A DNA stretch of 45,624 nt from a phage. The notes below the pieces were generated by a model. The model was given only the letters and a program-made list of their open reading frames with translations, ran no database searches and had not been told where the DNA came from. The translations under genes were made by a program, and so were the position numbers. Positions within the stretch are counted from its first letter, which is position 1. The number at the start of each line of letters is the position of its first letter. Positions 25 through 45,624 of this stretch are shown here, piece after piece. The stretch lies in the NCBI GenBank assembly GCA_033193195.1, contig GCA_033193195.1_4326.1, one strand, 5' to 3'.

Positions 25-696
25 ATGGTTGTTTGGTCTTTATTTGATGGTTCAGGGCTGGCTGTGAAAGATTGGGCTGAGGCTGGTCACTAGTGCTACT
101 GTTTCAACTTTGATGAGTCTGACCACGGTAGTTACGGGGATTTAAATGCAAAATTTGAACATGAGAACATCACCTACGTTAATGCCTGGATAGATGGCAA
201 CTTCGACTTTGATGTGAAGCCTGATATCATTTTAGCGTTCCCGCCGTGTACGGATTTAGCCGTGAGCGGGTCAAGGCACTTTGAGCGAAAGCGACTGGTT
301 AACCATAACTTCCAGATTGAAGCTGCGGATACATGTAAAGTTGCTTTTAACTTGGCTAATAAGTACGAAGTCCCATACATGATTGAGAATCCAATCAGCG
401 TACTGTCATCACTCTGGAGAAAGCCTAATAAGACTTTCCACCCATATGAATACGGAGGCTATTTGCCGGAAGATGATTTACACCCGTTTTTTAGCGACCT
501 AATAAAGCCAAGAGACGCATATCCTAAGAAGACATGCATTTGGTATGGCAATGGGTTTAAATGGCCAGAGGCGATTCCTGTGGACGTTAACGATGGATTC
601 TCTGACCAATACAAGAAGCTTGGTGGGAAGAGTAAGAAGACAAAGGTAATTCGCAGTCTAACTCCTCGCGGTTTTGCAAAAGCAGTCTTCATAGCA

Positions 697-29628: not shown

Positions 29629-29632
29629 AAAT

Positions 29633-30824: not shown

Positions 30825-30850
30825 GCATGCAAATCTATGTTTTTGATGTG

Positions 30851-31024: not shown

Positions 31025-31055
31025 TTTTGAATCCTCTGTTGTTTTCGATGTAGTA

Positions 31056-31637: not shown

Positions 31638-31638
31638 T

Positions 31639-32112
31639 TTATTCTCCGTGAGATTCGCAGTCCTTTGGTAATTCTTTATATTCACAAACTGACATTACAG
31701 TATATCCGCAATTCCTTAGGTGACTGATAACATTAGGATTATCCTCAAAGATTATCACACTTGCTTTGTCACCATTACACAAATCATTTAGCCACATCTC
31801 TTTAATGATATAGTCATTTCTGTTATCCAATCTACTCCTCATATATATTCCATCATAATTAATATTATTATACTGAAGCCATTCAAGCGTCATACATTCG
31901 ACTTCGTCACTTCTTGAAGTCATGATGTAAACTGGCGATAACTCAGCTAACGCATTCATCATGTTTATCATTGGAATTATCGGTGAATCTCCAGAACAGG
32001 CTCTATTGTAATCACTCCAACTTGAAGTCAAGTGAAGGTCACTAGATGGTAATAGGTGGCTTCTATGTTCATTGTTAGCAATAGTTCCATCAATATCAAA
32101 CACGTAAATCAT
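31639..32112 (-). CDS. HAD-family 5'(3')-deoxyribonucleotidase-like
   Basis: N-terminal FDIDGTI (DxDGT) motif. Confidence 0.55.
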   Translation of the reverse strand: MIYVFDIDGTIANNEHRSHLLPSSDLHLTSSWSDYNRACSGDSPIIPMINMMNALAELSPVYIMTSRSDEVECMTLEWLQYNNINYDGIYMRSRLDNRNDYIIKEMWLNDLCNGDKASVIIFEDNPNVISHLRNCGYTVMSVCEYKELPKDCESHGE

Positions 32113-32167
32113 TACAACTCCCCATCTCGTTATCGTTTATTCATTTGGCCTCAATCCTTTGAGGCTT

Positions 32168-32187
32168 TATTAACAAAAAGTGCTATT
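32168..32187 (-). promoter_or_regulatory. family upstream element (no clear -10)
   Basis: minus-strand AATAGCACTTTTTGTTAATAA then hairpin GCCTCAAAGGATTGAGGC. Confidence 0.4.
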
Positions 32188-33319
32188 ACTTAAACATTTC
32201 AGGTCGGCAAGTGAATCGACCAACTTCACCGTACTCTGAGCTATAGATAATTACTGAGGCCTGACGATAAGAGCGATACCCTCTGTTTGAGCTGTACGCA
32301 TCTTTAGCACCCAACTGACCGTGTGACTCATCAATTCCAAGATTACCCTCAGTAACCGTCTGATGATGATAATGGCCACTATGTGTATAAACGTATTCAG
32401 CATTACCAAATGCTTTGCGATGGTCGCGCGCAAGAGTTGAAAGACGAGTGTCAGGCTTTCGCAATTCATGACCATGGCAGTAACCCAACAATGTTTTACC
32501 AAACTCCGTCACGTGAAGAGCGGCTGGTGAGACATCAACATTTACACGAGGCTCATCCATGTAGAAGGCAGCCATTGCAGCTCGAAGCCAAATCATCCCA
32601 GAAAGGTCGTGGTTGCCTGGTATAATCTGAACCTCAACCTCTTTATGCTTGTCAAGCATCTTACTGACGGCGCGGCGAGTTGCACGAACAGCTACGTAGA
32701 CAAGTTTATGATAACGGCTATCTTGATCAAGTACGTGCTTGCTGGTTGGAGTTACAGCTTCCATTCCATCCGAGTGAAGGAAGTCTCCACCAATCAGTAA
32801 TACGGCTTTTGATGAATTCGGGGCCTTAGCAACTGCATAATCAAAGTATTGGTTAAGCACTCGCTCTGCAATTTCTGTACTGTAGTTCTCCCCACACTCT
32901 GCATGGTGAGCCATTGCGCCAATATGCATATCAAACACGGGGTAGAGGCTCAAGGTGTCCTCATAGCTTGATTCACTGAGTGGTTTCGGAGTCTCTCGAG
33001 GGAGCTCATCTGTAAGCGCCTGAACAATCTGCTGAAGCATCTCTTCTTGTTTCTGTTCGTCGATGGAAGTTTTAACCCAGCGCAGCTTCTCATTACCATC
33101 CGCATCAATCATTGTTGAAGTGCCTTTAACAAGATAGCCATCAGGAACTAGCTTCTTGATGCCTTCATTACCATGCCCAACCCCACTCTTAGCCAACTTG
33201 CTACGACGAAGCTCAACGTTTCGAATGTTCATTCCGTACTTCTCTGCAATCGCCTTGTTAGTCAGGCCGTTTTTCAGTTCTTCGATCAACTGCTCGTTGG
33301 TAATCTTTGCTGCTGCCAT
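32186..33319 (-). CDS. metallophosphoesterase with N-terminal HTH-like segment
   Basis: GDFLHSDG and GNHD motifs typical of calcineurin-like phosphoesterases. Confidence 0.5.
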   Translation of the reverse strand: MAAAKITNEQLIEELKNGLTNKAIAEKYGMNIRNVELRRSKLAKSGVGHGNEGIKKLVPDGYLVKGTSTMIDADGNEKLRWVKTSIDEQKQEEMLQQIVQALTDELPRETPKPLSESSYEDTLSLYPVFDMHIGAMAHHAECGENYSTEIAERVLNQYFDYAVAKAPNSSKAVLLIGGDFLHSDGMEAVTPTSKHVLDQDSRYHKLVYVAVRATRRAVSKMLDKHKEVEVQIIPGNHDLSGMIWLRAAMAAFYMDEPRVNVDVSPAALHVTEFGKTLLGYCHGHELRKPDTRLSTLARDHRKAFGNAEYVYTHSGHYHHQTVTEGNLGIDESHGQLGAKDAYSSNRGYRSYRQASVIIYSSEYGEVGRFTCRPEMFK

Positions 33320-33400
33320 TTTTAAGTCCTTAGTTCATCACGATAAAATATAAGATAGTAAAGCTAACCAGTGGTGCTAATGCTGCTAGGGCTACGTACC

Positions 33401-33652
33401 TCATTCAACCTCTTTTAACCAGAAATCCAACAAATCAGCACTAATTGCTAATTTTTGGTCCATGTCTGTCATGCACAGATTACCGCACGCTGGAGAGTAG
33501 TAAATCTGTACCCATTTACCGTCCTTCGTCTTCGCGTTAACATCCACATAGTCAGGTGGAAACCAGTCATCAATAGGTATCGCTATAAACCTGGCTCCGC
33601 TACTACCATGCACTAAATCATAATGCTTTGGCTGGAAATCTAATCCAAACAT
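33401..33652 (-). CDS. hypothetical protein
   Basis: 83 aa ORF. Confidence 0.4.
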   Translation of the reverse strand: MFGLDFQPKHYDLVHGSSGARFIAIPIDDWFPPDYVDVNAKTKDGKWVQIYYSPACGNLCMTDMDQKLAISADLLDFWLKEVE

Positions 33653-33654
33653 AA

Positions 33655-33897
33655 TTAACCCTTCGTTATCTTAAATTTGAATCCCTTCTCTTTCAGGAAC
33701 TCATTCGTGTTTATCGTGACGCCAGGTTTAACCCTGAGATACTTGCGCGGCCTTTCATCCATGTACGTAAACTTACCGTTGAAGATGACACTGATATCTT
33801 TTATATCGAAGTACTTAGATATCATCTTAATGTCGTCCTGAATGCCAGCCTCTGCGCAGTGGGCCCAGACTGCGTCCCGTCCTGTTTCAACTATCAT
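33655..33897 (-). CDS. hypothetical protein
   Basis: 80 aa ORF. Confidence 0.4.
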   Translation of the reverse strand: MIVETGRDAVWAHCAEAGIQDDIKMISKYFDIKDISVIFNGKFTYMDERPRKYLRVKPGVTINTNEFLKEKGFKFKITKG

Positions 33898-34018
33898 AAG
33901 CCGTATGCCAATTTCAGATATTCACGAGCGCACATCCATGACCACTCTGATTTATTCTTAACCGCATCAATCGCATAAACTTGCGCAATCTCGAACATCT
34001 CCTTATCTACGATTTTCA

Positions 34019-34240
34019 TTATTCAAAATCCTCCGGGCAATCTTTTTTCATATCTGCGATATCTGCAACCATGCGGTCGCGCCACGTTTCGATATCGGTT
34101 CGCAAGTAATCTTCCTCAAAACTGTAATCAAGGCACCAGGCCAAATCCCAAACATCACCTTTATATCCAGCCTTGTGTAATTCCTGGGCCGACATCGCCT
34201 GAAAGAGTTCCCATTGCTTGTCAAAAGTTAAAATTGCCAT
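34019..34240 (-). CDS. hypothetical protein
   Basis: 73 aa ORF. Confidence 0.4.
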   Translation of the reverse strand: MAILTFDKQWELFQAMSAQELHKAGYKGDVWDLAWCLDYSFEEDYLRTDIETWRDRMVADIADMKKDCPEDFE

Positions 34241-34245
34241 TACTC

Positions 34246-34440
34246 TTATACCTCATCAAATTTTTCGCCGAATTCGTTTTTAACAGTTTCCAGATCATAT
34301 TTGTAAGTTGGGCTAACTTCGAATGCATATGTGCAGTCTTCAATGTCAACCAAAACATAACCATCTTCAGTTACTTGCATCTCGTAGATGTAGCCAGTCT
34401 TGCGTGATTCGTAGAATTTACCAGTATAGATAGTAGCCAT
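34246..34440 (-). CDS. hypothetical protein
   Basis: 64 aa; family promoter and leader directly upstream. Confidence 0.45.
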   Translation of the reverse strand: MATIYTGKFYESRKTGYIYEMQVTEDGYVLVDIEDCTYAFEVSPTYKYDLETVKNEFGEKFDEV

Positions 34441-34478
34441 TTTCTTTCTCTCTTTGTGTGTTTCGTTTCGATGAGTTG

Positions 34479-34525
34479 ATAATACACCAACTCACCAATT
34501 CGTCTTTAGCAATTCGTGCTATTTT
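34479..34525 (-). promoter_or_regulatory. family promoter for 34246..34440
   Basis: minus-strand AATAGCACGAATTGCTAAAGAC, TATTAT, CATCGAAACGAAACACAC. Confidence 0.6.
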
Positions 34526-34938
34526 CTTATCATCTCTGCGAATGCCGCAAGAAAACCCTCTCTTCCATAAGCAACCGCTGCGAAACCGCCTGATTCCCTT
34601 ACGCTTTTTAGGAATGACTTTTGCTCATTGCTAACTGGGCTTGCTTGCGTTTTGCCAGCCCTCTTTAACTCTATGGCGCCAAATGGATAACCGCCACGCA
34701 ATGACTCAGGTATCAAGAATAAGCAGTCTGAAACACCTTTAAGGAGGCCCTTAGCCTGGTCTTTCCTTGCCTGGCCAATGCTCTTTTTATTTTCGTTAAT
34801 CGTGTGCCAGTAAACAATCTGCGGATAGTTGTATTTCACCCAGTCAGAGCAAAATATTTGTTCGTCATCTTCCTTTGGGCATGACTTTACAGGGCCGCCG
34901 TAGAACTCGATGTAATCAATTTTGTCTGTAATTTTCAT
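34519..34938 (-). CDS. VRR-NUC-like PD-(D/E)xK nuclease
   Basis: D..LFLIPE..GAIELK motif pattern; stop TAG lies inside promoter element. Confidence 0.5.
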   Translation of the reverse strand: MKITDKIDYIEFYGGPVKSCPKEDDEQIFCSDWVKYNYPQIVYWHTINENKKSIGQARKDQAKGLLKGVSDCLFLIPESLRGGYPFGAIELKRAGKTQASPVSNEQKSFLKSVRESGGFAAVAYGREGFLAAFAEMIRK

Positions 34939-34939
34939 G

Positions 34940-36649
34940 TTAATCCTCCATCGTGAATGATTTGTTGGCGATAATGTCTTGAGACTTCTGGTTTTTACGG
35001 TGTGTGATTCTCAATGGGGCACGGAATAGATGTGCATTTGTCATAATCATTCTAGCATTACGCAATCTGCCAATTCTGAATGCCTCAGTCCTGTTATCGA
35101 TGTGTGTTAAGCAGAAAGCCTTCCATTTAACAGAGCAAACGCGATGGTCTGATTCAGGGAAGAATGTTTCATAAGCTCGGAACTTATCTCCACTATGAGC
35201 CATTACCTCATATGAAGCAACGATCCCTGACTGGTTCTTTGTTAACCCAATCTTGAAGTCATAAACTCGCAACCAGTCCCCCTTACGATACATTTTTCCT
35301 GATAACTTAGCATTCGGGTCTATGAGCATCTCACCACAGCATCTGCAATTCTTAGCTGCAATATCATTCTTCTCACCGCATCCTTTCTTAATGATAGCTT
35401 TGGTCTGTGGGTCCACTATATCTTCACACAGTCTAAACTGAAAGAAGTGCTCACAGCGCTTCCCGTCAATTACGTTATTGCAGCGCCTGGCTAATGGAGA
35501 GTTCACATAAGAGCATGCCTGACAGATTCTTGGCTCACCAACACGCTTTCTTGCTGACCTAAATTTCTGGTCTTGTACCTCTTCTATAATTGGGTCGAAG
35601 TAAAGTTCAGCCATATCATCAAGCGTTCCAGCAAAATCAAGAACAACATGGTCATCTTTTACCATTCCAGCTTCTTTGTGCTTCTTCTTAAGGATACGCA
35701 TACCACGACCAAGCAACTGAATGAGTAGAGTAATGCTACCAACCTTCCTCAGGATAATGCTTGTATCCCACGGGGGGCAGTTTACGCCAGTTGTGAGGCA
35801 ACCAATCTGAAATATGAACTTATATTCTCCGTTGGCTGCCTTCTCAAGTATCTCTCTACGCTTATTCTCACCAGTGGAGTTGGTAACTATCGCCCAAGTA
35901 ACACCTTCTGGAAGTGCGGCTGCCGCCTCCTCGCAATGCTGTTTGCTAGCGCAAGTTACCAATGCAGCATTCCTTGTTTCCATAAACCTAGCAGCAAATC
36001 CCATTATCTTTTGTGTCATCGTTTGGTTTTCGTGAATCTTTGCAGCCATCGCATCCATTTCTTTCTTGCTGAAGTCCTTAACCCCATCACTTCCATCAGG
36101 AGTGAACTCACTAAGGTCGTAGCCCAAATCACCAACTTCACCGTAGACAGTAGGAACAACGAACCCCAAGTCAACAAGGTAGCTGGTTGGCACTTGCATT
36201 ACAGTTTTGCGCCAGAATCCACGGACATTTGGGTTACTAACTACAATGTGGTCGTTGTTACGGTACGGGCTACCAGTTAACCCAAAGATACGAAGTTCGC
36301 GACCGTACTTCTCCTTGCATCGACGCTTCATTTCGGTAATGATTAACGTGTATTGCGCGCGACCAGTGCCAAGAAGCCCGGTATTCACACCATCCTTAAA
36401 GACCATCTCACCCTTCTTCGTGCTCATCTGCTCGAATGTTTCCTCATTCTCTTCAGCTTCTACGATATCCATATGGTCCACCATGTGGCAATTATGTGCC
36501 ACGACCCCGTCAGCAATGAAATTATGGTGCTCAGGCATCTCTATATCCCAAACAAGTTCCTTGCCAATGGGTGAGATGTCTTTAATTTTGCTTGATTTTG
36601 TATTCCACGCCATTTTACATGTGCTTACTAATTCTCTTAAAAAACTCAT
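34940..36649 (-). CDS. SF2 helicase C-terminal fragment preceded by intein C-terminal splicing segment
   Basis: N-term ..ELVWDIEMPEHHNFIADGVVAHN then CHMVDH; helicase motifs LTGSP and QLLGRGMR; C-terminal Cys-rich zinc-finger-like region; ATG 36649 with GAGG upstream. Confidence 0.75.
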   Translation of the reverse strand: MSFLRELVSTCKMAWNTKSSKIKDISPIGKELVWDIEMPEHHNFIADGVVAHNCHMVDHMDIVEAEENEETFEQMSTKKGEMVFKDGVNTGLLGTGRAQYTLIITEMKRRCKEKYGRELRIFGLTGSPYRNNDHIVVSNPNVRGFWRKTVMQVPTSYLVDLGFVVPTVYGEVGDLGYDLSEFTPDGSDGVKDFSKKEMDAMAAKIHENQTMTQKIMGFAARFMETRNAALVTCASKQHCEEAAAALPEGVTWAIVTNSTGENKRREILEKAANGEYKFIFQIGCLTTGVNCPPWDTSIILRKVGSITLLIQLLGRGMRILKKKHKEAGMVKDDHVVLDFAGTLDDMAELYFDPIIEEVQDQKFRSARKRVGEPRICQACSYVNSPLARRCNNVIDGKRCEHFFQFRLCEDIVDPQTKAIIKKGCGEKNDIAAKNCRCCGEMLIDPNAKLSGKMYRKGDWLRVYDFKIGLTKNQSGIVASYEVMAHSGDKFRAYETFFPESDHRVCSVKWKAFCLTHIDNRTEAFRIGRLRNARMIMTNAHLFRAPLRITHRKNQKSQDIIANKSFTMED

Positions 36650-37629
36650 CTTGTGCCGACCTCGTTGTTATTGATACTGAGTAAAGCTCTCTCTTTTTCT
36701 TGCCGCAAATATAGCTTATAACCTTAACTCCGTCATTAGCAATAAATGCTATTAGCGCATCAACTACTGATTGAACTTCACGCCTGCTAAATGATTCGGT
36801 GTGGATTTCTACAACCCTCCCCCCTGAGCTTACAGTGCAATGACCATCATCACCAAAGTAAGCAGCCCAACCAACTGGATCAAGCTCTCTGCATATCTTT
36901 CCAATATCGTAACCATCCTTAGAATTTCCGTACTTATCAGCATATGAATCCAGAACTTTCGTACATGATGTTGATACGCAAAACCAGTTGTCGCCAAATC
37001 CAGGGTTTTTCTTCTCCCTGTATCTAGGGTTTAGTTTTGCAAACCTTTCAACCTTGCTTAGTGCGTGCTCCTTATTTCCATATTCCAAGATAGCCTATGC
37101 GTTCCTTTTTCTGTATTTTTAATCAAGCAACCATCACCAGCCATTGCCGCAAGAATGTTTTGATGTAAAAAGTCATCAACCTCCATTTATGGGTTGACGG
37201 TTGAATTATGATGCCCCGTTCTGTAATCCAAATAGAAATCGAAAGGGTTCTTAAGAAGTACGCCTAACCCCTTGCTTGAATGCGGCATAACTTTTTCACC
37301 ACAGCCACACTTGCACGCAGAAGCTTTTTCGTAAATTTGTCCTGCGAGCCGTCTAGCGACAGATTCATCCCAATACGAAGTTTTCCCGCTTCTACCCAGC
37401 AGCCGTTCGAATAAAGTTTGTGTGTACTCGTGCATTTTATTTCCTCTCCGCTTTCTAATTTAATTGATAATACATGTCTTACACCATTAGTAAAAACTCT
37501 TTTTGGCTTATGATAGAAGTAATCACCAGTGCTTTCGTTTATGCATTTTATTTTATGATTGATAAGGTCTTCGCTATCAATCCTCATCATCCCTGAATCG
37601 GTGGTTATCATCGTGTCTCCAGTTAAGCA
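36491..37629 (-). other. intein inserted in helicase DECH motif; LAGLIDADG endonuclease core disrupted
   Basis: blocks CLTGDTMITT and CTSTHKL..W in N-extein frame; ILAAMAGDGC and WAAYFGDDGHC in two other frames; in-frame TAA 37187..37189; length 1139 bp is not a multiple of 3. Confidence 0.7.
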
Positions 37630-38073
37630 CTCATCTATCGCGATAACAGCAGGAGCATAGTCACCAAGCCCCTTAAACAAGCCGTTAGCAGCCGTTCCCT
37701 CACTAGCCACTATGGTTGGATAGTAAACTGATTTAACGTTAAGGCCAGCGCAATAGACGCTATTACGGATGCCGAAATTACGAAGTTCCTCTGCGTTCTG
37801 GCTGATAATCTCTGACTGGCGAGATAGGACCATGTAAGGAAGGCCAAGCTGTTCCATTCGTTTCCCAATCATGGCGAGTATAATTGTCTTACCAGCAGAC
37901 ACCGACAGGTCTGCGATGAATGGCGCTTCGTACTTGCCAATAGCCTTACCGATTGCGTCAAATGTCACGCACTGGAATTCGTAAGGCGTTATGTCTCCAA
38001 ACTGGTAATCTTTCTGAATCTGTTTAATTTTCTCTTTATCAAAGTTCGCCACTAAGCGCTCTACTGGAAGCAT
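37264..38073 (-). CDS. SF2 helicase N-terminal fragment fused to intein N-terminal splicing segment
   Basis: Walker A SVSAGKT, ..VIAIDE then CLTGDTMITT; stops 121 codons into intein. Confidence 0.75.
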   Translation of the reverse strand: MLPVERLVANFDKEKIKQIQKDYQFGDITPYEFQCVTFDAIGKAIGKYEAPFIADLSVSAGKTIILAMIGKRMEQLGLPYMVLSRQSEIISQNAEELRNFGIRNSVYCAGLNVKSVYYPTIVASEGTAANGLFKGLGDYAPAVIAIDECLTGDTMITTDSGMMRIDSEDLINHKIKCINESTGDYFYHKPKRVFTNGVRHVLSIKLESGEEIKCTSTHKLYSNGCWVEAGKLRIGMNLSLDGSQDKFTKKLLRASVAVVKKLCRIQARG

Positions 38074-38112
38074 TTTAAATATCCCTACAGTTTGTTAGTT
38101 CGTTGCATTGCT

Positions 38113-38158
38113 GTATAATAACAATTATCGAACCTATTGTTTAACAAAAAATGCTATT
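38113..38158 (-). promoter_or_regulatory. family promoter for helicase N-fragment gene
   Basis: minus-strand AATAGCATTTTTTGTTAAACAAT, TTATAC/TATTAT -10-like. Confidence 0.5.
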
Positions 38159-38169
38159 GAGGTAATGAG

Positions 38170-38643
38170 ATGTGTGAAATTGACAAGCGAACTATCAACG
38201 GCAATAACGGAACCATCCGCACGCAAGACAAGAAACAGCGCAAACGACCGTCAGGCTACTACGTATTGAAAGATGAAGTAAAGGCTGGGCTACGAGCTCG
38301 TCTGGAGATGGTTCTTGATTTCTACGGCACGAAGGCCAATATCGCCAAGCAGTTAAATGTATCTCACCAGACTGTAGAGCAATGGTTTGATCGCGGGATG
38401 ATTTCGGCTAGAGGTGCCCAGAGGGCTCACAATGCATACAAGCGAAATAAGGAAGGCTTTAGAGCTACGTTCTGCCGACCAGACCTGCAATTCGACGGAA
38501 ACGGTAAGCCATTAACGCTTAGATGCAAGAAACGCCATATGCTGCGGGTTGTTACCGAAGCTGAACTAGCAACAAAGCCACCATGTCGACCATGGCGCAA
38601 GAATAAGATTGCCAACGAAGCAGCACGAAAAGCTAAAGATTAA
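38170..38643 (+). CDS. HTH DNA-binding protein, candidate transcription regulator
   Basis: GTKANIAKQLNVSHQTVEQWFDRG helix-turn-helix-like segment; GAGGTAA SD. Confidence 0.55.
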   Translation: MCEIDKRTINGNNGTIRTQDKKQRKRPSGYYVLKDEVKAGLRARLEMVLDFYGTKANIAKQLNVSHQTVEQWFDRGMISARGAQRAHNAYKRNKEGFRATFCRPDLQFDGNGKPLTLRCKKRHMLRVVTEAELATKPPCRPWRKNKIANEAARKAKD

Positions 38644-38649
38644 ATAATT

Positions 38650-38680
38650 GGATGTGCCATAATCGGTACATCCTTTTTTA
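38650..38680 (+). terminator. rho-independent terminator
   Basis: GGATGTGCC-ATAATC-GGTACATCC then T6. Confidence 0.6.
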
Positions 38681-38694
38681 TTGGGGAGAAGAAA

Positions 38695-39174
38695 ATGAAC
38701 TGGCATGATTATTTTTACTATGTAGATGGCAAATTGCATTGAAAGATTAGCACTGCAAGACGTGTTAAGGTTGGCGATGAGTGCAACTCACTATCTACAT
38801 CTGGCTATTACAAAGTGTCTGTTAATGGCTTTAGGACTTATGTACATAGAGTTGTGTGGGAGATGTTTAATGGAGAACTTCAAAATGGCGACTACATTGA
38901 TCATATAAACCATAACAAATTAGATAACAGAATAGAAAACCTAAGAGTAACAACAAATCAAGGTAACTCAAGAAATTGCAAGCTTAGCGTTTTATCAACA
39001 ACTGGTTATTGTGGAGTGGCAAAGCTAAATCACGGAAAATTTAAGGCTTACATCAAGGTTGACGGCAAGCAGCTACACCTTGGTAACTTCGATACTCCAG
39101 AGCAGGCGTATAAAGTAAGAATTGAAGCAGAGAGAAAATACAACTTTCACGAAAATCACGGTTTAAGCAAATGA
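38695..39174 (+). pseudogene. HNH-AP2 homing endonuclease-like gene with in-frame TGA at 38740..38742
   Basis: MNWHDYFYYVDGKLH-stop-KISTARRVKVGD (Trp expected in G.L.WK motif); HRVVWEMFNGEL..DHINHNKLDNRIENLR HNH; YCGVAKLNHGKFKAYIKVDGKQLHLGNF AP2-like; GGGAGA SD. Confidence 0.65.
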
Positions 39175-40094
39175 ATTACGATAAGAATGAAGTTATACCT
39201 AAGATGGCCGGATTGTGGAAATCATTTTATGCAAAGGAACTTGGTTGGAATGATAGACACCTAAGTAAGAAGCACGGACCATGCCCATACTGCTTTGGCA
39301 CTGACAGATTCAGATTTACCGACGAAATAGGCAGTGAAAAAGGAAATGGCGCGGCAATTTGTTCGAAATGCGGAAGTGACTCCGGTATAGGGTGGGTCAT
39401 GAAGTGCACTGGATTGTCCTTCGCCGATTCAGTAAATTTGCTTGGTGACTGGCTGAACTTAACACCAATTGAGGTTATAGTTAAAGCTAACAAGCAAGCA
39501 TCAAGAACGCTGCGTTATAAAATGGGCGCTCAAGTAGACCACAAGAAAGTTCTTGAGGTCATGAAGAGGACTCAGCGAGTTGAATCTAGTCCACTCACGA
39601 CATACGAGGGTATTTATGACGAGTTTGGTTTTGATGTTGGTATAGCTAAAAATGGTTCAATGATTCACGCAATCCCTTGTTCGATGGTTTATGAAGATGG
39701 GCTTAGTGATGAGTTCTGTAACGTAATGTTTATTGATGAGGATTCAAATGTTAAGTTCCTTGCTGGTGATTACACTCGTGATTCTGTTTCCGTTATTGGT
39801 TCTAAGCAGGATGATAGTTATACTTATGTTGTTGACAATTATATTGATGGCATACGTGTTCACCTTGCTACTGGTGGGCGCGAAGTGTTTGTTGCTTTCT
39901 CCTGTTACAATATGGAGATGGTTATCCACCGAGACAAGTCAAGGAAGTTCAGAATTGCTTGCCGTGATTCTGATATCGATATCCTTGCTGTTGCTGACGA
40001 TAGGTGTGTTGATGTGGTGATTCCTAACGACGGTAAGTCATTTAAAACAGGCATACGAAAGAAAGTGTACAAAGCCAACGACTTGCTAAACTAA
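39171..40094 (+). CDS. DNA primase (zinc-ribbon + TOPRIM-like)
   Basis: HGPCPYCFGTDRFRF..CSKCGSDSG zinc-binding pattern; acidic D.D and DG motifs in C-terminal half. Confidence 0.6.
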   Translation: MNYDKNEVIPKMAGLWKSFYAKELGWNDRHLSKKHGPCPYCFGTDRFRFTDEIGSEKGNGAAICSKCGSDSGIGWVMKCTGLSFADSVNLLGDWLNLTPIEVIVKANKQASRTLRYKMGAQVDHKKVLEVMKRTQRVESSPLTTYEGIYDEFGFDVGIAKNGSMIHAIPCSMVYEDGLSDEFCNVMFIDEDSNVKFLAGDYTRDSVSVIGSKQDDSYTYVVDNYIDGIRVHLATGGREVFVAFSCYNMEMVIHRDKSRKFRIACRDSDIDILAVADDRCVDVVIPNDGKSFKTGIRKKVYKANDLLN

Positions 40095-40116
40095 CCTCCT
40101 TCGGGAGGTTTTTTAT
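40093..40116 (+). terminator. rho-independent terminator
   Basis: AACCTCC-TTCG-GGAGGTT then T6. Confidence 0.75.
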
Positions 40117-40137
40117 TGCCTGAAAGATGGTAGAATG

Positions 40138-40160
40138 AATTTTAGCAATTCGTGCTATTT
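40138..40160. promoter_or_regulatory. orphan copy of family element in opposite orientation to the downstream gene
   Basis: TTTAGCAATTCGTGCTATTTT with no consensus -10 in either direction. Confidence 0.4.
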
Positions 40161-40179
40161 TACAAATGGAGACTTTACA

Positions 40180-42714
40180 ATGGCAATTTATGACTTAGGA
40201 ACAGCATCACTAGCCTCAAATGGCGAGGTTACTGGCGTAGGTACTACATGGAAAGCACCTCTTACACTGATTCGTGTAGGTGCTACTATCATTTTCAAAA
40301 CCAGCCCTCTGAAAATTTACACCATCTCTGAAATCATCAGCGATACTCAGGTTAATGTTTATAATCCAAGTTCTGAAACTGTTCCCGCTGGTACTGGTTA
40401 CGCAATTCTTGCTCATGATGGAATTACTGTTCAGGGGTTGGCGCAGGATGTTGCGGAAACATTGCGTTACTACCAGTCAAAAGAGACTTCTATTGAAAGT
40501 CTACTGCAATTTATTGGTCAAGATACTTTTGATTGGCCTCGTTTTGAACAACTGGCAACTCAGTCAACTACCGGAGCTGCCGAGGCGCTTGCTAGTCAGA
40601 TCTCTGCCGCTGAGAGTGCCTCTACAGCGGTAGGTGCTAGCAATAACGCACAAAATTCATATAACAGGACGGTTGAAGCAATAAATGCGGCTGGAAATAC
40701 AGCGGCTGTTGCTTACTTTGCTAATCACGGAATAGGTAGCACGACAACGCCATTACTTACCTCTTTAGATTGGCAAACAATGCAATTTTATTCCGGAGGT
40801 CGTTATCAGTGCACACTTGGGAATATGTTAAACACCCCAAAAGAAATTAGTTCAATGTTTCCGGTTTCAACAACTCCTATTTGTATTGATGTTATTGCAA
40901 CTAGGGGTGTTAATTCGGCTAATGTATTAAGGTTATCTCCGTCTACTGGGTCAAACTCAAATTTTAGGATTGCAGATGTCACAATTTCTGGTGCGACTGG
41001 ATCTAGGGTTTTTTATGTAAGGGAAGTACTAAGCTTGCCTGGCGGTGATGCTGCAACTGGTGGATCAAGCGCGTCAAGGGTTAGGGGGTTGCTTGATGTT
41101 TACTCAAAATCCGAGACGTTTCAAAAATCATTGAATCTTTCAGACATTGCAGATAAGTCCGTGGCAAGAACCAACCTTGATGTTTACTCAAAGGGTGAGG
41201 TGTCATCAATTTTAAATACAGATTCAAAAAGCACATCAAGCTATAGAGGCTCAATATCTTCAGCAATAGAAGCCGCTGGCGATGGCGGGTCGGTAGTTAT
41301 AAGCCCGGGAACTTATGAGAGTAATAACTACTCCTTTGCTGGCAGTAACATATCAGGCTCTGGATATAATACCGTAATAAGTGTTAAACCTTTTGAAACC
41401 GGACTCACCTCAACGCTATCTGTTCCGCACTGGAGGCAAAAGCATTTATCGGATTTGCAGTTTACAGGTACTGCAATACAAGGTAATAACGGCTTTCAAT
41501 TCCCGGATGACCCTTATGCTGGAAGGGTTGTATTGGATAGGCTTTACTTCAATGACCTGGATGTTGGTATAAGGAAAAATGCTGGCAACATTGGAAATAC
41601 CTACAGAAACGTAAGTATTAGAAATGCGAATTACGGGTATCGAGCCAAAGCTCATGACAAAATGCATATAGGAGCGGACACTTTATACGGATACCACTCA
41701 GATACAATCTATCAATATTCAGTAATGCTAGATGCGACAAGCACAAGTAGCGCAACGAACCCTGTTGCTGGAGGAATTGGTGGGTGGTGGATTAGGGATT
41801 CAATAATGGAGGCCTCTGCTGGCGGCGGTATAAGGTTAAAGAATAAACCTGGAGATTGCCCAACATCACCTTGCGGATTGTCTAACGTATGGTTTGAAGC
41901 GATAGCAACTGGGGGAGCAATTAACGTAGGTGAGGGAGCTGAACTCCCAAGGGTTTTGAAGCTCATCGATACGTCCGTTTTCTTTGCTGAGCATTCTTAT
42001 ATTAATAACATTGAGTTATCAAATTCAAACCTTGTTACTTACGGTTGCAGGTTTGATAACGCTGATGGGCATCAAAGTTTCTCTCTTGATTCGAACAGTA
42101 TTATTTTTGCTAAGGATGCATACCTGAATGGATCTTCAACATCAAGCGTTATAGTTGAGTCACTGGTATCACAGACAGCCAAGATAACGGGTACATCTGA
42201 CTTATCTGTTAGAGGATATGTTACTAAAGGTCGAGTTTTTAATCCCGATTCCGGAACTGTTTTAGTCAGGAGGCCTTTTGGTACTGGTGGGAACAACTTT
42301 GGTGGAACAGGGTCGTCAATTGAAGGTTCTGATACAAGGGGTATACACTCGCAATCATCTGGATACTACGAATTTGCTGGTGCGGCTCAGTACGAATTGA
42401 TAAATGGTGGCTTTAATATAACTTCCGGAAAATGGTATGCTTGGGGTATTTCTGCAAACAGGATTCAAGGCGGTGCTGATGGTATTATAAACATTTTTGG
42501 TAGCGCATCATTAGGCCGTGTGTTTACTGAGGGTGGTAAGTGGGTTCATACATTTGGCGTTGGTCAGGCTTCGGTTTCTGGCGTTGCAAACCTTAACATT
42601 AACCTCAATGGATTAACTGGTATGGTATTAAGCCTTGCTGATTATTTTGTTGTAGAATTTGATAATCAAAGGGACGCCTTGATATTTGCAAACTCAAGAG
42701 TTTCTCTTGCATAA
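40180..42714 (+). CDS. tail fibre / tailspike-like protein (lateral fibre candidate)
   Basis: 845 aa, Gly/Ser/Thr/Asn-rich repeats; start 40180 with GGAGA SD (track start 40135 lies inside the motif). Confidence 0.55.
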   Translation: MAIYDLGTASLASNGEVTGVGTTWKAPLTLIRVGATIIFKTSPLKIYTISEIISDTQVNVYNPSSETVPAGTGYAILAHDGITVQGLAQDVAETLRYYQSKETSIESLLQFIGQDTFDWPRFEQLATQSTTGAAEALASQISAAESASTAVGASNNAQNSYNRTVEAINAAGNTAAVAYFANHGIGSTTTPLLTSLDWQTMQFYSGGRYQCTLGNMLNTPKEISSMFPVSTTPICIDVIATRGVNSANVLRLSPSTGSNSNFRIADVTISGATGSRVFYVREVLSLPGGDAATGGSSASRVRGLLDVYSKSETFQKSLNLSDIADKSVARTNLDVYSKGEVSSILNTDSKSTSSYRGSISSAIEAAGDGGSVVISPGTYESNNYSFAGSNISGSGYNTVISVKPFETGLTSTLSVPHWRQKHLSDLQFTGTAIQGNNGFQFPDDPYAGRVVLDRLYFNDLDVGIRKNAGNIGNTYRNVSIRNANYGYRAKAHDKMHIGADTLYGYHSDTIYQYSVMLDATSTSSATNPVAGGIGGWWIRDSIMEASAGGGIRLKNKPGDCPTSPCGLSNVWFEAIATGGAINVGEGAELPRVLKLIDTSVFFAEHSYINNIELSNSNLVTYGCRFDNADGHQSFSLDSNSIIFAKDAYLNGSSTSSVIVESLVSQTAKITGTSDLSVRGYVTKGRVFNPDSGTVLVRRPFGTGGNNFGGTGSSIEGSDTRGIHSQSSGYYEFAGAAQYELINGGFNITSGKWYAWGISANRIQGGADGIINIFGSASLGRVFTEGGKWVHTFGVGQASVSGVANLNINLNGLTGMVLSLADYFVVEFDNQRDALIFANSRVSLA

Positions 42715-42742
42715 AAAAAGCCCCGAAAGGGGCTTTATCTTT
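42713..42742. terminator. bidirectional terminator
   Basis: A7-AGCCCC-GAAA-GGGGCT-TTATCTTTT. Confidence 0.7.
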
Positions 42743-42744
42743 TA

Positions 42745-43176
42745 TCAGAATGGAATATCTCCGTCGAATGTGTTTTGCTGTTGTGGTTGTTGCTGTTGCT
42801 GTTGCGGTTGATGGCGCTGTTGTTGCTCTGTATTTTTATGTTGCTGTACACCATCACCACGCTGACTAAACTCAAGACGAGGATTGTTCATGTTAATTGT
42901 TATGTAAGTCTTGCCATCTTTATCTCGAACATCTAATGCTAACGTCTCACAACTTACGCTAACAATCTTCCCTTCCTGAAACGCCTCGTTATACCATGCA
43001 AGCATTGATTCCTTTGCGAAGAAGACGGCACGATAGTTGCTATACTGAGATTGACCATCTTTATCCTTGTAACGCTCACTTAAATCAACCGCGTACATCT
43101 TCCAACTTCCATTTGCATTCTGACCTTCTTTAGTGAAAGGAGCGCGACGGATAACACCAGTGATTACATGACTCAT
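42745..43176 (-). CDS. single-stranded DNA-binding protein
   Basis: OB-fold-like N-terminal half, Gln/Pro-rich linker, acidic C-terminal tail DGDIPF. Confidence 0.8.
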   Translation of the reverse strand: MSHVITGVIRRAPFTKEGQNANGSWKMYAVDLSERYKDKDGQSQYSNYRAVFFAKESMLAWYNEAFQEGKIVSVSCETLALDVRDKDGKTYITINMNNPRLEFSQRGDGVQQHKNTEQQQRHQPQQQQQQPQQQNTFDGDIPF

Positions 43177-43216
43177 TTTCTTTCTCTCTTAATGTTGGGG
43201 CCGCAGCCCCGTTAAA

Positions 43217-43867
43217 TTAGAATGTGTCGATTTCTTGAGATTGCACTTCAACTTTTTCTTCTTGAACAGACTTTTGTGCAACCTGTTTAGGTTTTGCAGG
43301 ATTGAAGCCGTTAGTTGCATTAGCCTGAATCTCTGCCTTACGCTCAATAATGTGAGGCTCAAGCACTAACCAGCCGGCTGGATCAAGTGACTGCTTCGCC
43401 TCTTTGTAAACATCACGGAGGTCATCAAGAGTACTGCACTTAGCCAAGTCTTTCTTGAATGAGTTGATGCCTTTAACTGCTAACTGACCATCATCATCTG
43501 CCTGGCTTAAACCTAACGCCGCTGTGATTGCGTAACGGCGAGCGTATGTAAGTGATGACCCATAACCTTGAGCATCTTGCTTACTGATTGGGACGATTGT
43601 CAGGAAGCTAACCCACTCCCCAGACTCTGCGTGATAAACGGTTGTTTCAACCTTAATACGAGTGCTTACATCATCATCAATCATCGACTGAAACATCACC
43701 AGTCCGCTATCAGCCAAGCCTGGCTCTACAGCTGCTAAAACATCATCTAAAGTAGCGTACTTATTCTTGAGGTGTGAGTTCTGCTTAGACTTTTCAGCCT
43801 TAGCAAACTTTGATTTAGCCTCGAATAACGCCTTCAATACTTGCTTGTTTTGCTCAGAAGTTTTCAT
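43217..43867 (-). CDS. Erf-like single-strand annealing protein
   Basis: start 43867 downstream of predicted start site; central region typical of Erf-type annealases by eye. Confidence 0.5.
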   Translation of the reverse strand: MKTSEQNKQVLKALFEAKSKFAKAEKSKQNSHLKNKYATLDDVLAAVEPGLADSGLVMFQSMIDDDVSTRIKVETTVYHAESGEWVSFLTIVPISKQDAQGYGSSLTYARRYAITAALGLSQADDDGQLAVKGINSFKKDLAKCSTLDDLRDVYKEAKQSLDPAGWLVLEPHIIERKAEIQANATNGFNPAKPKQVAQKSVQEEKVEVQSQEIDTF

Positions 43868-43897
43868 TCCCCATCTCTCTTTCGTTTCGATGGGGTA

Positions 43898-43944
43898 ATG
43901 ATACCCCACCTGTTAATTTTGTCTTTAGCAATTAGTGCTATTTT
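43898..43944 (-). promoter_or_regulatory. family promoter for annealase/SSB unit
   Basis: minus-strand AATAGCACTAATTGCTAAAGAC, TATCAT, CATCGAAACGAAAGAGAG. Confidence 0.6.
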
Positions 43945-44909
43945 AGAAGTTCTTGATACTGCTTACTTACCCACTCAGGAATCATCAAATCTTGCTCTGT
44001 AATCCCATTGCTATACCCAGGCCATACATCAAGCTTCTTGCACTGTTTGTATGTTGCTAGTGCCTCTAAATATTGTAAGCGCCCAATGCGAAGCTGCTCA
44101 TCCGTAAGCGTGTAGCACATAGGTAAGTAAGGCTCCGTTTTTTCCTGCACCAGAAGTCGAGCCACAACCTTACGCTTCTCGCTGAATGCCTTCACAAACA
44201 AATCACGCTGAAGGCTCATCTTGCAAAGGTATCCATGGTCATAAGCCGACTTACCAAATCCTCTAGGACTTGCATCTGCTGTGGTTTTGTAGTCATGGAT
44301 ATAGACAACGCCATCAACAACATCTACGTGATCAAGCCTAACCTTAACACCACACCCAAGAATCTCACCAAAGATTGATAGCTCTTTCTGTGCTGTTGGT
44401 GAGTTAATAATCGCATCGTAAGCTGGGATATTAGTCAGAACCTCGCGCATTGAGATTACCTTATCGTAATCTTTCGCAGTAACGAGCTCTTTGCCACTAA
44501 TTAACGCCTTAGCGCTCTCCTGCTGCTCAATTAACCATTTAACAGGCCAATCCTCACCAGATTTATACATCATCTCCACGAGCTCGCTATATCCCTTCCC
44601 TGACGTGCCTGAAACTCCAACTTTTTTAAGCGCTGCGGATAAAGCCGTTTGGCTAGTAATCAATCCTTCCACTTCGTCAAAGTCAGTAGCTCGCATGTAT
44701 GTTGAGTCAAACACCTCGCGCTCTAGCATCATGCAGTGACTTAGTGTGCCAAACTTAAGTGCTGCGCTAGAGTTATTGAGCTGCTTAAACTTCCATTTAG
44801 CTGGTGAGGTAGCAAGAATCTCAGCCAGTGAAGAGCCAGAGATATGGTCTTGCTCTTCGTGATATGATTCATTTGTTAGCTCGTCGTTCGTATAAACTTT
44901 AAATGTCAT
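43938..44909 (-). CDS. recombination exonuclease (PD-(D/E)xK-type)
   Basis: D..VYIHDYKTT core; paired with annealase and SSB. Confidence 0.5.
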   Translation of the reverse strand: MTFKVYTNDELTNESYHEEQDHISGSSLAEILATSPAKWKFKQLNNSSAALKFGTLSHCMMLEREVFDSTYMRATDFDEVEGLITSQTALSAALKKVGVSGTSGKGYSELVEMMYKSGEDWPVKWLIEQQESAKALISGKELVTAKDYDKVISMREVLTNIPAYDAIINSPTAQKELSIFGEILGCGVKVRLDHVDVVDGVVYIHDYKTTADASPRGFGKSAYDHGYLCKMSLQRDLFVKAFSEKRKVVARLLVQEKTEPYLPMCYTLTDEQLRIGRLQYLEALATYKQCKKLDVWPGYSNGITEQDLMIPEWVSKQYQELLK

Positions 44910-44912
44910 GGT

Positions 44913-45107
44913 TCAATCCTTAATTTTAACAATCTTAATAGCTTTCAAATCTTCTTCAGTGAAGTATCCTGTCAGCAACTCCTTGGCCTCTTCCTTTGTC
45001 TCGAATTGGTCGGCTTCAGATTTGTTGGTAGTGTATCCAGCGGGGCCACCAAAGTAGCAATCGCCGAACAGTGCGTTGTTTTTCTCTTTAATAATGAAGT
45101 ATGGCAT
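44913..45107 (-). CDS. hypothetical protein, first gene of leftward unit from control region B
   Basis: 64 aa; TTGGAC..ATCATT promoter-like and ATCGAAAGCACGC leader upstream. Confidence 0.45.
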   Translation of the reverse strand: MPYFIIKEKNNALFGDCYFGGPAGYTTNKSEADQFETKEEAKELLTGYFTEEDLKAIKIVKIKD

Positions 45108-45572
45108 TTCTCTATCTCTCTATTTTTGCGTGCTTTCGATTAGTTAATGATGCCGCACGCAAGACACACAGTCCAATTGGTATCACCGATTAATTAATCA
45201 AGTATACGCGTATAAATCCGTAACTACGTGTAGACATTGCCATTAGTTACGTTTTTCACCACTTCAGCCCAGCTATAGCTCAATGTAAATAGTGCGTATA
45301 CCGTGTATACCGATTTTTGCGGAGGGTGCATAGGTATATGCGCCACGCAATACTGTATAAAATCACATTATATAAAAATTATAACCGGAACACTCCAGAA
45401 CAGTAGTTACATGATATACACAGTAATATATATAATAATAATAATAAGAGTAAATGGTTGATATATATAGATATTATTATGTAACTATGGCGTATCAAAG
45501 CGTAACTAGGCGTATACGATTTCCCGCTGATGCATATGGTATACATAGAGTTACATCGGTTACGCGTAACCA
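45108..45572. promoter_or_regulatory. control region B: AT-rich noncoding divergent-promoter region paralogous to region A
   Basis: same conserved blocks as 25380..25650; palindrome GGTTACGCGTAACC at 45558..45571. Confidence 0.6.
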
Positions 45573-45615
45573 ACAGCACGAATAGCTAAAACTAATCCGC
45601 AAAACCATGTATAGT
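45573..45615 (+). promoter_or_regulatory. family promoter at window end, oriented toward window start
   Basis: AACAGCACGAATAGCTAAAAC, TATAGT 45610..45615. Confidence 0.5.
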
Positions 45616-45624
45616 TGGTCACAC

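Follow-up and report, generated by a model that had tools for sequence, protein, structure and literature searches.

A premature opal codon in a free-standing HNH-AP2 homing endonuclease gene of a T1-like phage: probable recent pseudogenization within a captured primase leader

The stretch of phage DNA analyzed here (the window; 45,624 nt) carries on its plus strand, at positions 38695..39174, a gene for a free-standing homing endonuclease with an HNH_3 core and an AP2 fold. Its 159 codons are broken at codon 16: the frame opens with the ATG at 38695 (MNWHDYFYYVDGKLH), meets a TGA at 38740-38742, continues with KISTARRVKVGDECNS...DHINHNKLDNRIENLR..., and closes with the terminal TGA at 39172-39174, exactly as the original prediction had described it. 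The same gene is annotated in relatives as an intact 480-nt CDS. It is a separate ORF, associated with neither an intron nor an intein, and is seated between the Shine-Dalgarno (SD) sequence and the ATG of a DNA primase gene.

With the codon-16 stop read as Trp, the window's HNH protein matches Pfam HNH_3 (PF13392) over residues 49-93 (38839..38973, plus strand; E 4e-18, 65.2 bits against a cut-off of 24.8), a catalytic core of the His-Me finger type resembling that of I-HmuI. All seven family-invariant residues of this core and its DH...N...N motif (H51, D69, H70, N82, L83, N91 and N94) are intact in the window's frame. Likewise, the family profile matches I-HmuI (PDB 1U3E; E 8.6e-09), which is also the top Foldseek match of the AlphaFold model used in this work, that of a 98%-identical orthologue (pLDDT 90) and not of the window's own protein. 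Residues ~106-148 (39010..39138, plus strand) are assigned to an AP2/ERF-fold DNA-binding domain of three strands and a helix. Although the Pfam AP2 model (PF00847) finds no match in the window's own copy at E<=1, the AP2-like segment noticed earlier is backed by its family: 21 of 38 members match Pfam AP2 (best E 4.3e-08), the family profile matches the plant AP2/ERF structures WRI1 (7.7e-08), TEM1 (6.3e-05) and ERF096 at positions 106-156, and the orthologue model superposes on AtERF1 (1GCC) with 0.8 A rmsd over 49 columns (TM 0.70, target-normalised). At the N-terminus, the G.L.WK motif invoked in the original prediction does correspond to a family consensus, GxLxWK, but its Trp is a majority residue only, being replaced by S, N, R, Y or F in distant members. 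The codon is TGG in every one of the ~98%-identical orthologues, and Trp16 forms the end of an N-terminal beta-hairpin in the orthologue model.

Immediately upstream, 3' of a regulator gene, lies a terminator-like hairpin followed by a T-run (GGATGTGCC...GGTACATCC; 38650..38682, plus strand), whose counterpart in phage EC3a is annotated as a terminator and which is the final left-side sequence common to phages with an empty site. Next comes the SD sequence GGGGAG (38683..38688, plus strand), with a predicted dG of -8.5 kcal/mol against the anti-SD. This sequence is the SD of the primase in the empty-site siblings L023 and L026, and that of the HNH gene in the window; the 25 nt 5' of the start codon are identical in the two settings. 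This capture of the primase ribosome-binding site had gone unnoticed in the earlier reading of the DNA. The primase gene itself (Zn_Ribbon_Prim; 39171..40094, plus strand) begins within the HNH stop codon, the resulting ATGA overlap (39171..39174, plus strand) being a translational-coupling arrangement. Its own SD is nearly gone in HNH-bearing phages (dG -2.4, versus -7.1 to -8.5 in empty-site phages).

The inserted DNA can be delimited as a mobile cassette of 476 bp (38695..39170, plus strand), bounded by a 5-nt ATGAA microhomology. It is missing in siblings L023 and L026 as well as in AN_ECEAS, ES, Rogue1, JeanPiccard/Bas02 and others, and the empty sites of L023, L026 and AN_ECEAS are otherwise collinear with the window, the insertion measuring exactly 476 bp. 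Since siblings with an identical regulator protein have no copy of the HNH gene, it is selfish and dispensable, in agreement with the original prediction. Seven annotated orthologues are known from Drexlerviridae/Braunvirinae under the names "HNH endonuclease" or "putative homing endonuclease": TR1 (UVD31762.1), IME542 (QAU04374.1), DTL (ATW61831.1), EC3a (AQN32375.1), AugustePiccard/Bas01 (QXV76171.1), phiA2-1 (WRH07494.1) and RobRod40 (WWD13296.1). They share with the window the location between regulator and primase, the ATGA overlap with the primase, and 98.3-99.0% nucleotide identity across the HNH gene; unlike the window's copy, they are uninterrupted, codon 16 being TGG. In these phages, regulator and primase are only 79-89% and 76-94% identical to those of the window, respectively. 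A tract spanning 38650..39500 (plus strand), in which each of the seven HNH-bearing GenBank phages is 96-100% identical to the window, takes in the HNH gene and the first ~330 nt of the primase and has sharp edges, identity beyond them being 55-88%. Such a pattern suggests co-conversion during homing. AN_ECEAS was considered as the primase backbone and rejected, as the window's primase differs from its counterpart there along the whole length and has that of phiA2-1 as its closest relative; the co-conversion argument consequently rests on the seven HNH-bearing phages. The cassette appears to have spread by cleavage in or near the 5' region of the primase. Among phages with an identical regulator protein, four states of the locus can be seen: empty, intact, opal (the window), and ochre plus frameshift. 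The last of these, in L024, is an independent decay with a G60V change, a CAA>TAA ochre and a +1 insertion.

The premature opal codon (38740..38742, plus strand) derives from an ancestral TGG (Trp16) by a G>A change at 38742, and the base following it is A (UGA-A). TGG stands at codon 16 in 11/11 independent relatives, and an extant intact protein of 159 aa (P0069) differs from the window's product only by Trp16, so the TGG to TGA change that had been proposed as the most parsimonious is the one that occurred. All four IMG/VR contigs carrying the gene likewise have TGG; a scan of JGI metagenomes with a conserved 3'-end pattern gave zero matches. Relative to intact relatives, the window's copy has the TGA and one private synonymous change, while its Tyr118 is common to some intact alleles. 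No further damage is found 3' of the stop, where the other private change is the synonymous one; on the sequence, such an undamaged remainder is consistent with a very recent event and also with continued selection. The family additionally includes a truncated member of 92 aa (P0061); its cluster at 90% comprises 68 sequences from 37 contigs. As the opal codon is a single-base departure from every relative, in a contig from a bacterial isolate or short-read assembly, a sequencing or assembly error with TGG as the real sequence might be suspected. This is very unlikely, given that a 1586-bp contig from another run, DRR502114, matches the window letter for letter with the TGA included (the runs possibly representing one phage stock), that two different assemblers, giving the NCBI TPA contig of 45,624 bp and the Logan contig of 45,654 bp, agree on the TGA, and that both runs share five further private substitutions within this 1.6 kb. 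The original prediction was to be abandoned if resequencing gave TGG; an identical TGA sequence in two different runs instead indicates that the stop is no sequencing error.

The opal codon is not the only lesion in this genome. As had been noticed before, codon 23 of a Dcm-like C5-cytosine methyltransferase gene is an amber TAG (91..93, plus strand), arising by GAG>TAG (G>T) relative to a sibling genome; the gene is intact, at 229 aa, in siblings L022 and L023. On the minus strand, a LAGLIDADG endonuclease ORF lying between two halves of a helicase intein carries two ochre codons, one from GAA (36615..36617) and one from TCA (37187..37189), together with a 1-nt deletion, and is worse decayed than in the sibling. 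The "decayed intein endonuclease" of the original prediction holds for this separate ORF, but the two splicing halves of the split intein look intact. Premature stops relative to AN_ECEAS are also present in two small annotated ORFs (23737-23739 and 23915-23917) and in an unannotated ORF (25523-25525), a further one (26261-26263) falls close to the 3' end of a small ORF that is poorly conserved, and another, at 26294, is not a single-step change. An ochre codon said to interrupt a paralog could not be located; no pair of paralogues reaches E<1e-4 in the window, and the HNH gene is present there as a single copy. Finally, the claim that four nonessential or selfish genes had been inactivated is borne out as regards stops in dispensable genes, but such stops, counting those in unannotated frames, number about eight and not four, as counted in a tblastn scan that was limited by a dominant-ORF filter and from which several remaining stops 5' of true starts were discarded.

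These stops have a common signature. All eight are single steps from the codons of relatives, six by G:C>T:A and two by G:C>A:T changes, and the three stop types can accordingly be attributed to one mutational cause. It had been argued that three different stop codons speak against a single suppressor or recoding system; indeed, no such system was found, but the stops share one mutational spectrum. A comparison that covered 13.6 kb and used a single sibling with two outgroups yielded 43 lineage-private substitutions (24 C>A, 9 C>T, 5 T>C, 3 T>G and 2 T>A), with a substitution rate at G:C sites 4.3 times that at A:T sites. Nonsense changes were as frequent as expected without selection (3 observed versus 2.9), missense changes were depleted (19 versus 27.6), and synonymous changes were enriched (16 versus 7.3), some clustered synonymous differences being possible recombination patches. 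The spectrum would fit a mixture of 8-oxoguanine-like and deamination-like damage.

The reading we favor, and consider highly probable, is that the window contains a freshly inactivated homing endonuclease gene, brought in by homing and struck by a single G>A change (TGG>TGA) within a lineage-wide, G:C-targeted mutational spectrum. A free-standing HNH(HNN)-AP2 gene would have invaded a Braunvirinae (T1-like) lineage by homing, landing exactly between the primase SD and its start codon. A private burst of substitutions, both 8-oxoguanine-like and deamination-like, would then have generated TAG, TAA and TGA codons in dispensable genes, hitting those that tolerate stops (the methyltransferase, the intein-associated LAGLIDADG ORF, small ORFs and the HNH gene), while essential genes would have retained missense and synonymous changes only. 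Among these events, the one transition from TGG (Trp16) to TGA would recently have knocked out the endonuclease, and the window's allele would belong to the phase of the homing-endonuclease life cycle in which the gene degenerates. The SD and ATG are intact, but translation begun there ends after 15 residues, so that neither the His-Me finger nor the AP2 domain is made, and nuclease activity has presumably been lost in the opal allele. Since UGA is leaky in E. coli and can be misread by Trp-tRNA(Trp), a trace of wild-type protein may nevertheless be produced. With TGA at codon 16, the locus is best filed as a pseudogene of the family and not as an active member. It is a real yet ordinary case of recent pseudogenization, affecting a type of selfish gene that is already known.

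The position of the gene raises the possibility of effects beyond the endonuclease. Because the HNH gene has taken over the primase ribosome-binding site, a stop within it could be polar on an apparently essential gene: a primase lacking its own SD and overlapping the HNH stop should be translated less if HNH translation were fully blocked. Against this expectation, the opal-bearing phage persists in at least two samples. It is tempting to suggest that ribosomes arrive at the SD-less primase start by way of HNH translation, a "translational addiction" in which only lesions that keep up the flow survive. Such an arrangement would explain both observed decays, the UGA at a Trp codon in the window and the ochre of L024, where an ATG 1 nt after the TAA opens the remainder of the HNH frame, which runs on to the primase start. 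We regard this as improbable; if true, it would mean that the selfish gene cannot simply die. Closely allied, and a little less probable still, is the idea that the leaky UGA acts as an attenuator, misreading by Trp-tRNA supplying a trickle of enzyme and of ribosomes for the primase, with the allele tolerated or even favored. The stop does stand in a UGA-A context, reportedly a weak termination signal. UGA is the leakiest stop codon of E. coli, read through in competition between Trp-tRNA(Trp) and RF2 (PMC10570021), and the residue so inserted would be the ancestral Trp. The capture of the primase SD by the HNH gene, with a weak primase start (dG -2.4) overlapping the HNH stop, would lend such leakage a use, the rest of the ORF is undamaged, and the decay in L024 (TAA, then ATG 1 nt on) could also keep ribosomes flowing. 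The stop is nonetheless private to the lineage, codon 16 showing no conserved stop and reading TGG in all eleven independent relatives; the RNA 3' of the UGA folds no better than shuffled sequences (MFE z-score +0.75), and an Rfam search of the window returned no matches, so neither a stimulatory structure nor a known element accompanies it. Moreover, the mutation fits a genome-wide random spectrum that struck unrelated genes too, two examples do not establish a constraint on lesion type, and the AU-rich leader of the primase may initiate unaided.

Two other translational accounts fare worse. Re-initiation past the stop could yield a truncated but active enzyme, since both the HNH core (49-93) and the AP2 domain lie 3' of it, and gene callers do report remnant ORFs: one of 119 aa with a GTG start (38815..39174, plus strand) from the Logan gene caller, its product being present in a third run as well, and one of 103 aa from Met57 (38863) from PGAP. 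The GTG at 38815 has no SD (dG -1.5), however, and the GGGAG before Met57 abuts the ATG at an unusable spacing, with a product from Met57 also lacking the invariant H51. Both remnants miss strands 7-10 and 13-16, which are packed on the core in the model and have as their counterpart in I-HmuI the N-terminal sheet region that contacts DNA, and no full-length family member begins near either start. Re-initiation of this kind is thus highly improbable. Recoding of UGA as Trp or Sec, or its reading by a phage suppressor, would account for a stop at a Trp position much as in code-4-type reassignment, but is effectively refuted. The host is E. coli, a tRNA search of the window found tRNA-Arg(CCU) alone and no suppressor, and the Rfam search detected no SECIS element. 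TGA terminates genes in the window, including the HNH gene itself, TAG and TAA interrupt other genes as well, and the sibling genome reads TGG.

Freshly inactivated endonuclease genes of this kind have clear counterparts. Free-standing HNN-AP2 endonucleases, some in degenerate copies, have been described in phages T1, Rtp, T5, Xp10, OP1 and Xop411, and their degeneration is known in T1, T5 and Xanthomonas phages (PMC2248197). The window's gene resembles them in its two-domain architecture, its free-standing nature, the occurrence of multiple insertion sites per genome, and stepwise degeneration after invasion; in those cases, however, the decay is older and domains are truncated, whereas the window holds one fresh nonsense codon, with the intact parent and the empty site still observable on near-identical backbones. 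Phage T4 likewise has defunct HNH homing endonuclease genes and co-conversion (PMC2988022). Its I-TevIII and seg/mob genes resemble the window's case in that free-standing or decayed HNH genes sit beside conserved genes of DNA metabolism, flanking markers are co-converted, and stop and start codons of neighbors overlap (PMC2988022, PMC2790892). At T4 nrdA/mobE, the endonuclease gene is the downstream, coupled partner; in the window, it lies upstream, having taken the primase SD, and it is the primase that is coupled. I-HmuI of Bacillus phage SPO1 (1U3E) has the same DH...N...N His-Me finger core and preceding beta-sheet region, but it is intron-encoded, is only ~21% identical, and has a different C-terminal DNA-binding region, said to be a helix-turn-helix domain, where the window's free-standing gene has AP2. 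Finally, the A1 protein of coliphage Q-beta is made by programmed UGA readthrough at a stop that is conserved and functional. As there, Trp-tRNA(Trp) reading UGA in E. coli would yield the full-length product; in contrast, the window's stop is private to one lineage, interrupts a selfish gene at codon 16, and comes with no accompanying signal.

Homing endonuclease genes pass through a cycle of invasion, fixation and degeneration whose textbook end is nonsense decay, and since earlier work already covers this gene family, including its AP2 domain and the way it degenerates in T1-like and T5-like phages, the case carries little weight as a discovery. The captured SD and the ATGA overlap do raise the question of whether a selfish gene can constrain its own loss by coupling to an essential gene. 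The mixture of stop types also shows how several interrupted genes can reflect one G:C-targeted mutational process and nothing translational, a caution for genome scans and for annotation pipelines, which here named the 103-aa and 119-aa remnants "HNH endonuclease". Lastly, empty, intact, one-mutation and three-lesion alleles occur beside an identical neighboring protein, and this clean natural series makes the locus convenient for measuring rates of homing, co-conversion and decay in Drexlerviridae.

The homing endonuclease gene opens with ATG at 38695 (+), continues through MNWHDYFYYVDGKLH to an in-frame TGA at 38740-38742, and then runs for 143 more sense codons to its terminal TGA at 39172-39174. 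The window itself belongs to a T1-like coliphage (Drexlerviridae, Braunvirinae). An uninterrupted 480-nt version of this coding sequence is annotated as "HNH endonuclease" or "putative homing endonuclease" between the transcriptional regulator and DNA primase genes of seven distinct GenBank phages (TR1, phiA2-1, IME542, DTL, EC3a, AugustePiccard, and RobRod40). In the alignment, all seven read TGG opposite the window's TGA, as expected from the original prediction of a TGG-to-TGA change at a conserved tryptophan. TGG is likewise found in four of four IMG/VR contigs, including an independent one from a metagenome, and at codon 16 of the related assemblies L022, L024, and L025. The Logan assembly of run DRR502069 (a 45,654-bp contig) matches the window exactly. 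Moreover, a separate run, DRR502114, yielded a 1,586-bp contig with the TGA that is identical throughout to window 38021-39606; the original prediction was to be abandoned if resequencing gave TGG at 38740-38742, and it therefore stands.

The 119-aa truncated product occurs on three contigs in total, and on the contig of the NCBI third-party E. coli assembly that equals the window in length (45,624 bp), PGAP calls a 103-aa "HNH endonuclease" from Met57. An intact 159-aa protein of the same 90% cluster (P0069) shares the window's Tyr118 and differs from its product at Trp16 alone. The intact parent allele is extant, with the stop as the sole protein-level difference from it. As far as can be judged from assemblies, the TGA is real. 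The observation behind the original prediction is confirmed and its interpretation supported; the event is an ordinary one, in which a single-nucleotide change has very recently turned a selfish gene of a known type into a pseudogene.

If Trp is put in place of the internal stop, the resulting 159-aa protein is a match to Pfam HNH_3 (E 4e-18). In an alignment of 38 family members, the N-terminal consensus is GxLxWK, its Trp being the majority residue and not an invariant one, and the invariant residues H51, D69, H70, N82, L83, N91, and N94 are all kept in the window's frame. Positions 30-115 of the family profile match I-HmuI, an HNH homing endonuclease (1U3E; E 8.6e-09), and positions 106-156 match the plant AP2/ERF domains WRI1, TEM1, and ERF096. 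Pfam AP2 is matched by 21 of the 38 members; a search of the window's own copy gave no AP2 match. In an AlphaFold model of a 98%-identical orthologue (pLDDT 90), Trp16 ends the N-terminal beta-hairpin and residues 108-148 form three strands and a helix. Foldseek with this model returned I-HmuI at the top and AP2 domains next, AtERF1 superposing at 0.8 A rmsd over 49 columns. The predicted label, HNH-AP2, is correct.

Such decay is an already known kind of event. Free-standing HNN/HNH-AP2 endonucleases, like the window's, were described in 2007 in T1, Rtp, T5, and Xanthomonas phages, together with their stepwise degeneration after invasion (PMC2248197). Likewise, the T4 classics include defunct HNH endonucleases, co-conversion, and stop/start overlaps of homing endonuclease genes with adjoining genes (PMC2988022). 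Ten GenBank records already carry an annotation of the intact orthologue.

The gene has also moved as a cassette. The window's nearest overall relatives, AN_ECEAS and ES (~92% identity), are both without it, while more distant phages have it. Identity to the seven carriers is 98.3-99.0% for the HNH gene, 79-89% for the regulator gene, and 76-94% for the primase gene. In 50-nt bins, a sharp-edged tract of 96-100% identity extends from ~38650 to ~39500, comprising the HNH gene and the 5' ~330 nt of the primase gene; this is the kind of tract that co-conversion during homing would be expected to leave (PMC2988022). Siblings with an empty site read ...TTATTGGGGAGAAGAAA-ATGAATTACGAT, that is, the Shine-Dalgarno (SD) sequence and then the primase start. 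In the window, 476 bp are inserted at the exact junction between the primase SD and ATG (window 38683-38697 and 39171-39174 versus 10509-10528 of the empty-site assembly L023), each of the two ORFs starting with ATGAA. Consequently, the former primase SD now serves the HNH gene (anti-SD pairing at dG -8.5 kcal/mol), while the primase itself is left with practically no SD (dG -2.4), its start codon overlapping the HNH stop (ATGA, 39171-39174). The captured SD and the ATGA overlap are common to all HNH-bearing relatives. A limited literature search found no description of this coupling orientation, with the homing endonuclease gene upstream on a captured SD and an essential gene downstream.

An exact-sequence lookup of the window's regulator protein returned phages with a 100% identical regulator that differ at the HNH locus. 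Specifically, the site is empty in L023 and L026, the 159-aa gene is intact in L022 and L025, the opal allele is present in the window (L021) and L017, and the gene is split into 62 + 96 aa in L024. Together these phages offer a population snapshot of the homing-endonuclease cycle. L024 (10526-11006 of DRR232302_8266) keeps TGG at codon 16 and has lesions of its own, namely a G60V missense change, an ochre at codon 63 (CAA>TAA), and, 9 nt beyond it, the insertion of one G (+1), so the HNH gene has decayed independently at least twice. One base on from this ochre lies an ATG (TAAAATG), which, owing to the insertion, reads the remaining HNH frame to the ATGA overlap. A third truncated member (P0061, 92 aa) lies on a 45,885-bp contig.

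With its SD captured by the cassette, the primase should be translated less once HNH translation is cut off at codon 16, as the ribosomes come free 429 nt before a start that is nearly SD-less. The phage is nevertheless present in at least two runs. In-frame restart sites downstream of the opal look poor, since the candidate GTG at 38815 has no SD, and at Met57 a GGGAG abuts the ATG, from which the product would be without the invariant H51. It is possible that the AU-rich primase leader initiates by itself, or that a low primase level is enough. Possibly, too, misreading of UGA by Trp-tRNA(Trp), the usual route of readthrough in E. coli (PMC10570021), sustains a trickle of ribosomes and wild-type enzyme. 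Selection to keep ribosomes flowing through the HNH gene to the primase, a "translational addiction", seems improbable; the TAAAATG stop-restart of L024 is compatible with it, but two cases of decay prove nothing.

There is no recoding of the opal. TGA ends other ORFs of the window, the HNH gene itself included, and the only tRNA is tRNA-Arg(CCU) at 22572-22647 (-); in AugustePiccard, a tRNA-Arg is annotated as reading AGA. Rfam at gathering thresholds found that tRNA alone in the window, with nothing at E<=1 in 38600-39300, and the 71 nt from the UGA onward fold no better than shuffles (z +0.75). The original prediction had reasoned that three stop types argue against a suppressor, rightly so; all of the stops fit one mutational spectrum.

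This spectrum was derived by comparison with L022 (45,621 bp), a near-sibling over most of the 20 kb compared (window 28170-45624 plus 1-3000), with differences polarized by two outgroups, L023 and AN_ECEAS. On the window's lineage, 43 substitutions were derived in 13.6 kb: 24 C>A (G:C>T:A), nine C>T (G:C>A:T), five T>C, three T>G, and two T>A. A different alignment gave a similar result, and the per-site rate at G:C pairs is 4.3x that at A:T pairs. When the observed spectrum was applied at random to the same coding sequences with no selection, 2.9 nonsense, 27.6 missense, and 7.3 synonymous changes were expected, versus 3, 19, and 16 observed; selection has filtered amino-acid changes in essential genes and has not purged dispensable genes of stops.

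Each of the window's premature stops lies a single G:C>T:A or G:C>A:T step from the codon of the relatives. The G:C>T:A class comprises GAG>TAG in the Dcm-like methyltransferase (codon 23, at 91, +) and in a small ORF (23739, -), GAA>TAA and TCA>TAA in the LAGLIDADG ORF (36617 and 37189, both -), TCA>TAA in a small ORF (26261, +), and GGA>TGA at 25525 (-); the G:C>A:T class comprises TGG>TAG in a small ORF (23917, -) and the HNH TGG>TGA (38740-38742, +). The opal is one of about eight stops from one spectrum in a mutation-laden phage lineage, and we infer that a single oxidative-damage-like process probably explains all three stop kinds. The G:C-targeted pattern is an 8-oxoG/mutY-like signature, possibly from a host with a mutator phenotype or from oxidative damage suffered by a persistent contaminating phage.

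The predicted amber in the Dcm-like C5-cytosine methyltransferase is borne out: TAG occupies 91-93 (+), with the AdoMet motif (FDGSG) on one side and the catalytic PPC motif on the other, versus an intact 229-aa gene in the siblings L022 and L023. The mutation also makes an 8-bp palindrome, CACTAGTG. Relative to AN_ECEAS, the stops at 23737-23739 and 23915-23917 (-) lie in the middle of two very small putative genes annotated side by side (53 and 44 aa), that at 25523-25525 (-) in an unannotated putative 58-aa ORF, and that at 26261-26263 (+) close to the 3' end of a putative small ORF only ~85% identical there.

A neighboring feature of more interest than the HNH gene is a helicase in three parts on the minus strand (~34940-38073). 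One ORF (37264-38073) encodes the N-extein (148 aa) and Int-N (121 aa), with the junction ...AIDE|CLTGDT...; a LAGLIDADG_2 ORF lies in a separate frame (remnant ~36615-37190; 201 aa in L022); and a third ORF (~34940-36650) encodes Int-C (~41 aa) and the C-extein, with the junction ...GVVAHN|CHM.... The intein is inserted within the DEAH box. Int-N and Int-C fused in silico match Pfam Intein_splicing at 47.8 bits versus a cut-off of 35.8, and AN_ECEAS, L022, and L024 carry this split too. On these grounds, the arrangement has the look of a "fractured gene" with a split intein that works, not of a dead gene. L023, L025, and most relatives have a 664-aa helicase without the intein. The window's arrangement differs from the "fractured genes" of Dassa et al. 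(2009, PMC2677866) in having a LAGLIDADG endonuclease in place of a GIY-YIG or Vsr-like one. Of the three parts, the endonuclease ORF alone shows further decay in the window, in line with the "decayed intein endonuclease" originally proposed.

Finally, the window turns up as a contig in a third-party assembly at NCBI labeled "Escherichia coli" (protein HEF0535439.1), and also in the Logan assemblies of runs DRR502069 and DRR502114, so a virulent T1-like phage genome travels inside bacterial sequencing runs, whether in a carrier state or through contamination in the laboratory. HNH copies elsewhere, truncated or intact, are also labeled as E. coli proteins. A whole-window search returned 15 "Campylobacter" records, and MG065688.1, "UNVERIFIED Campylobacter phage A110b", is a Braunvirinae coliphage-like genome with the same methyltransferase, probably reflecting a wrong host assignment or T1-like phage contamination.
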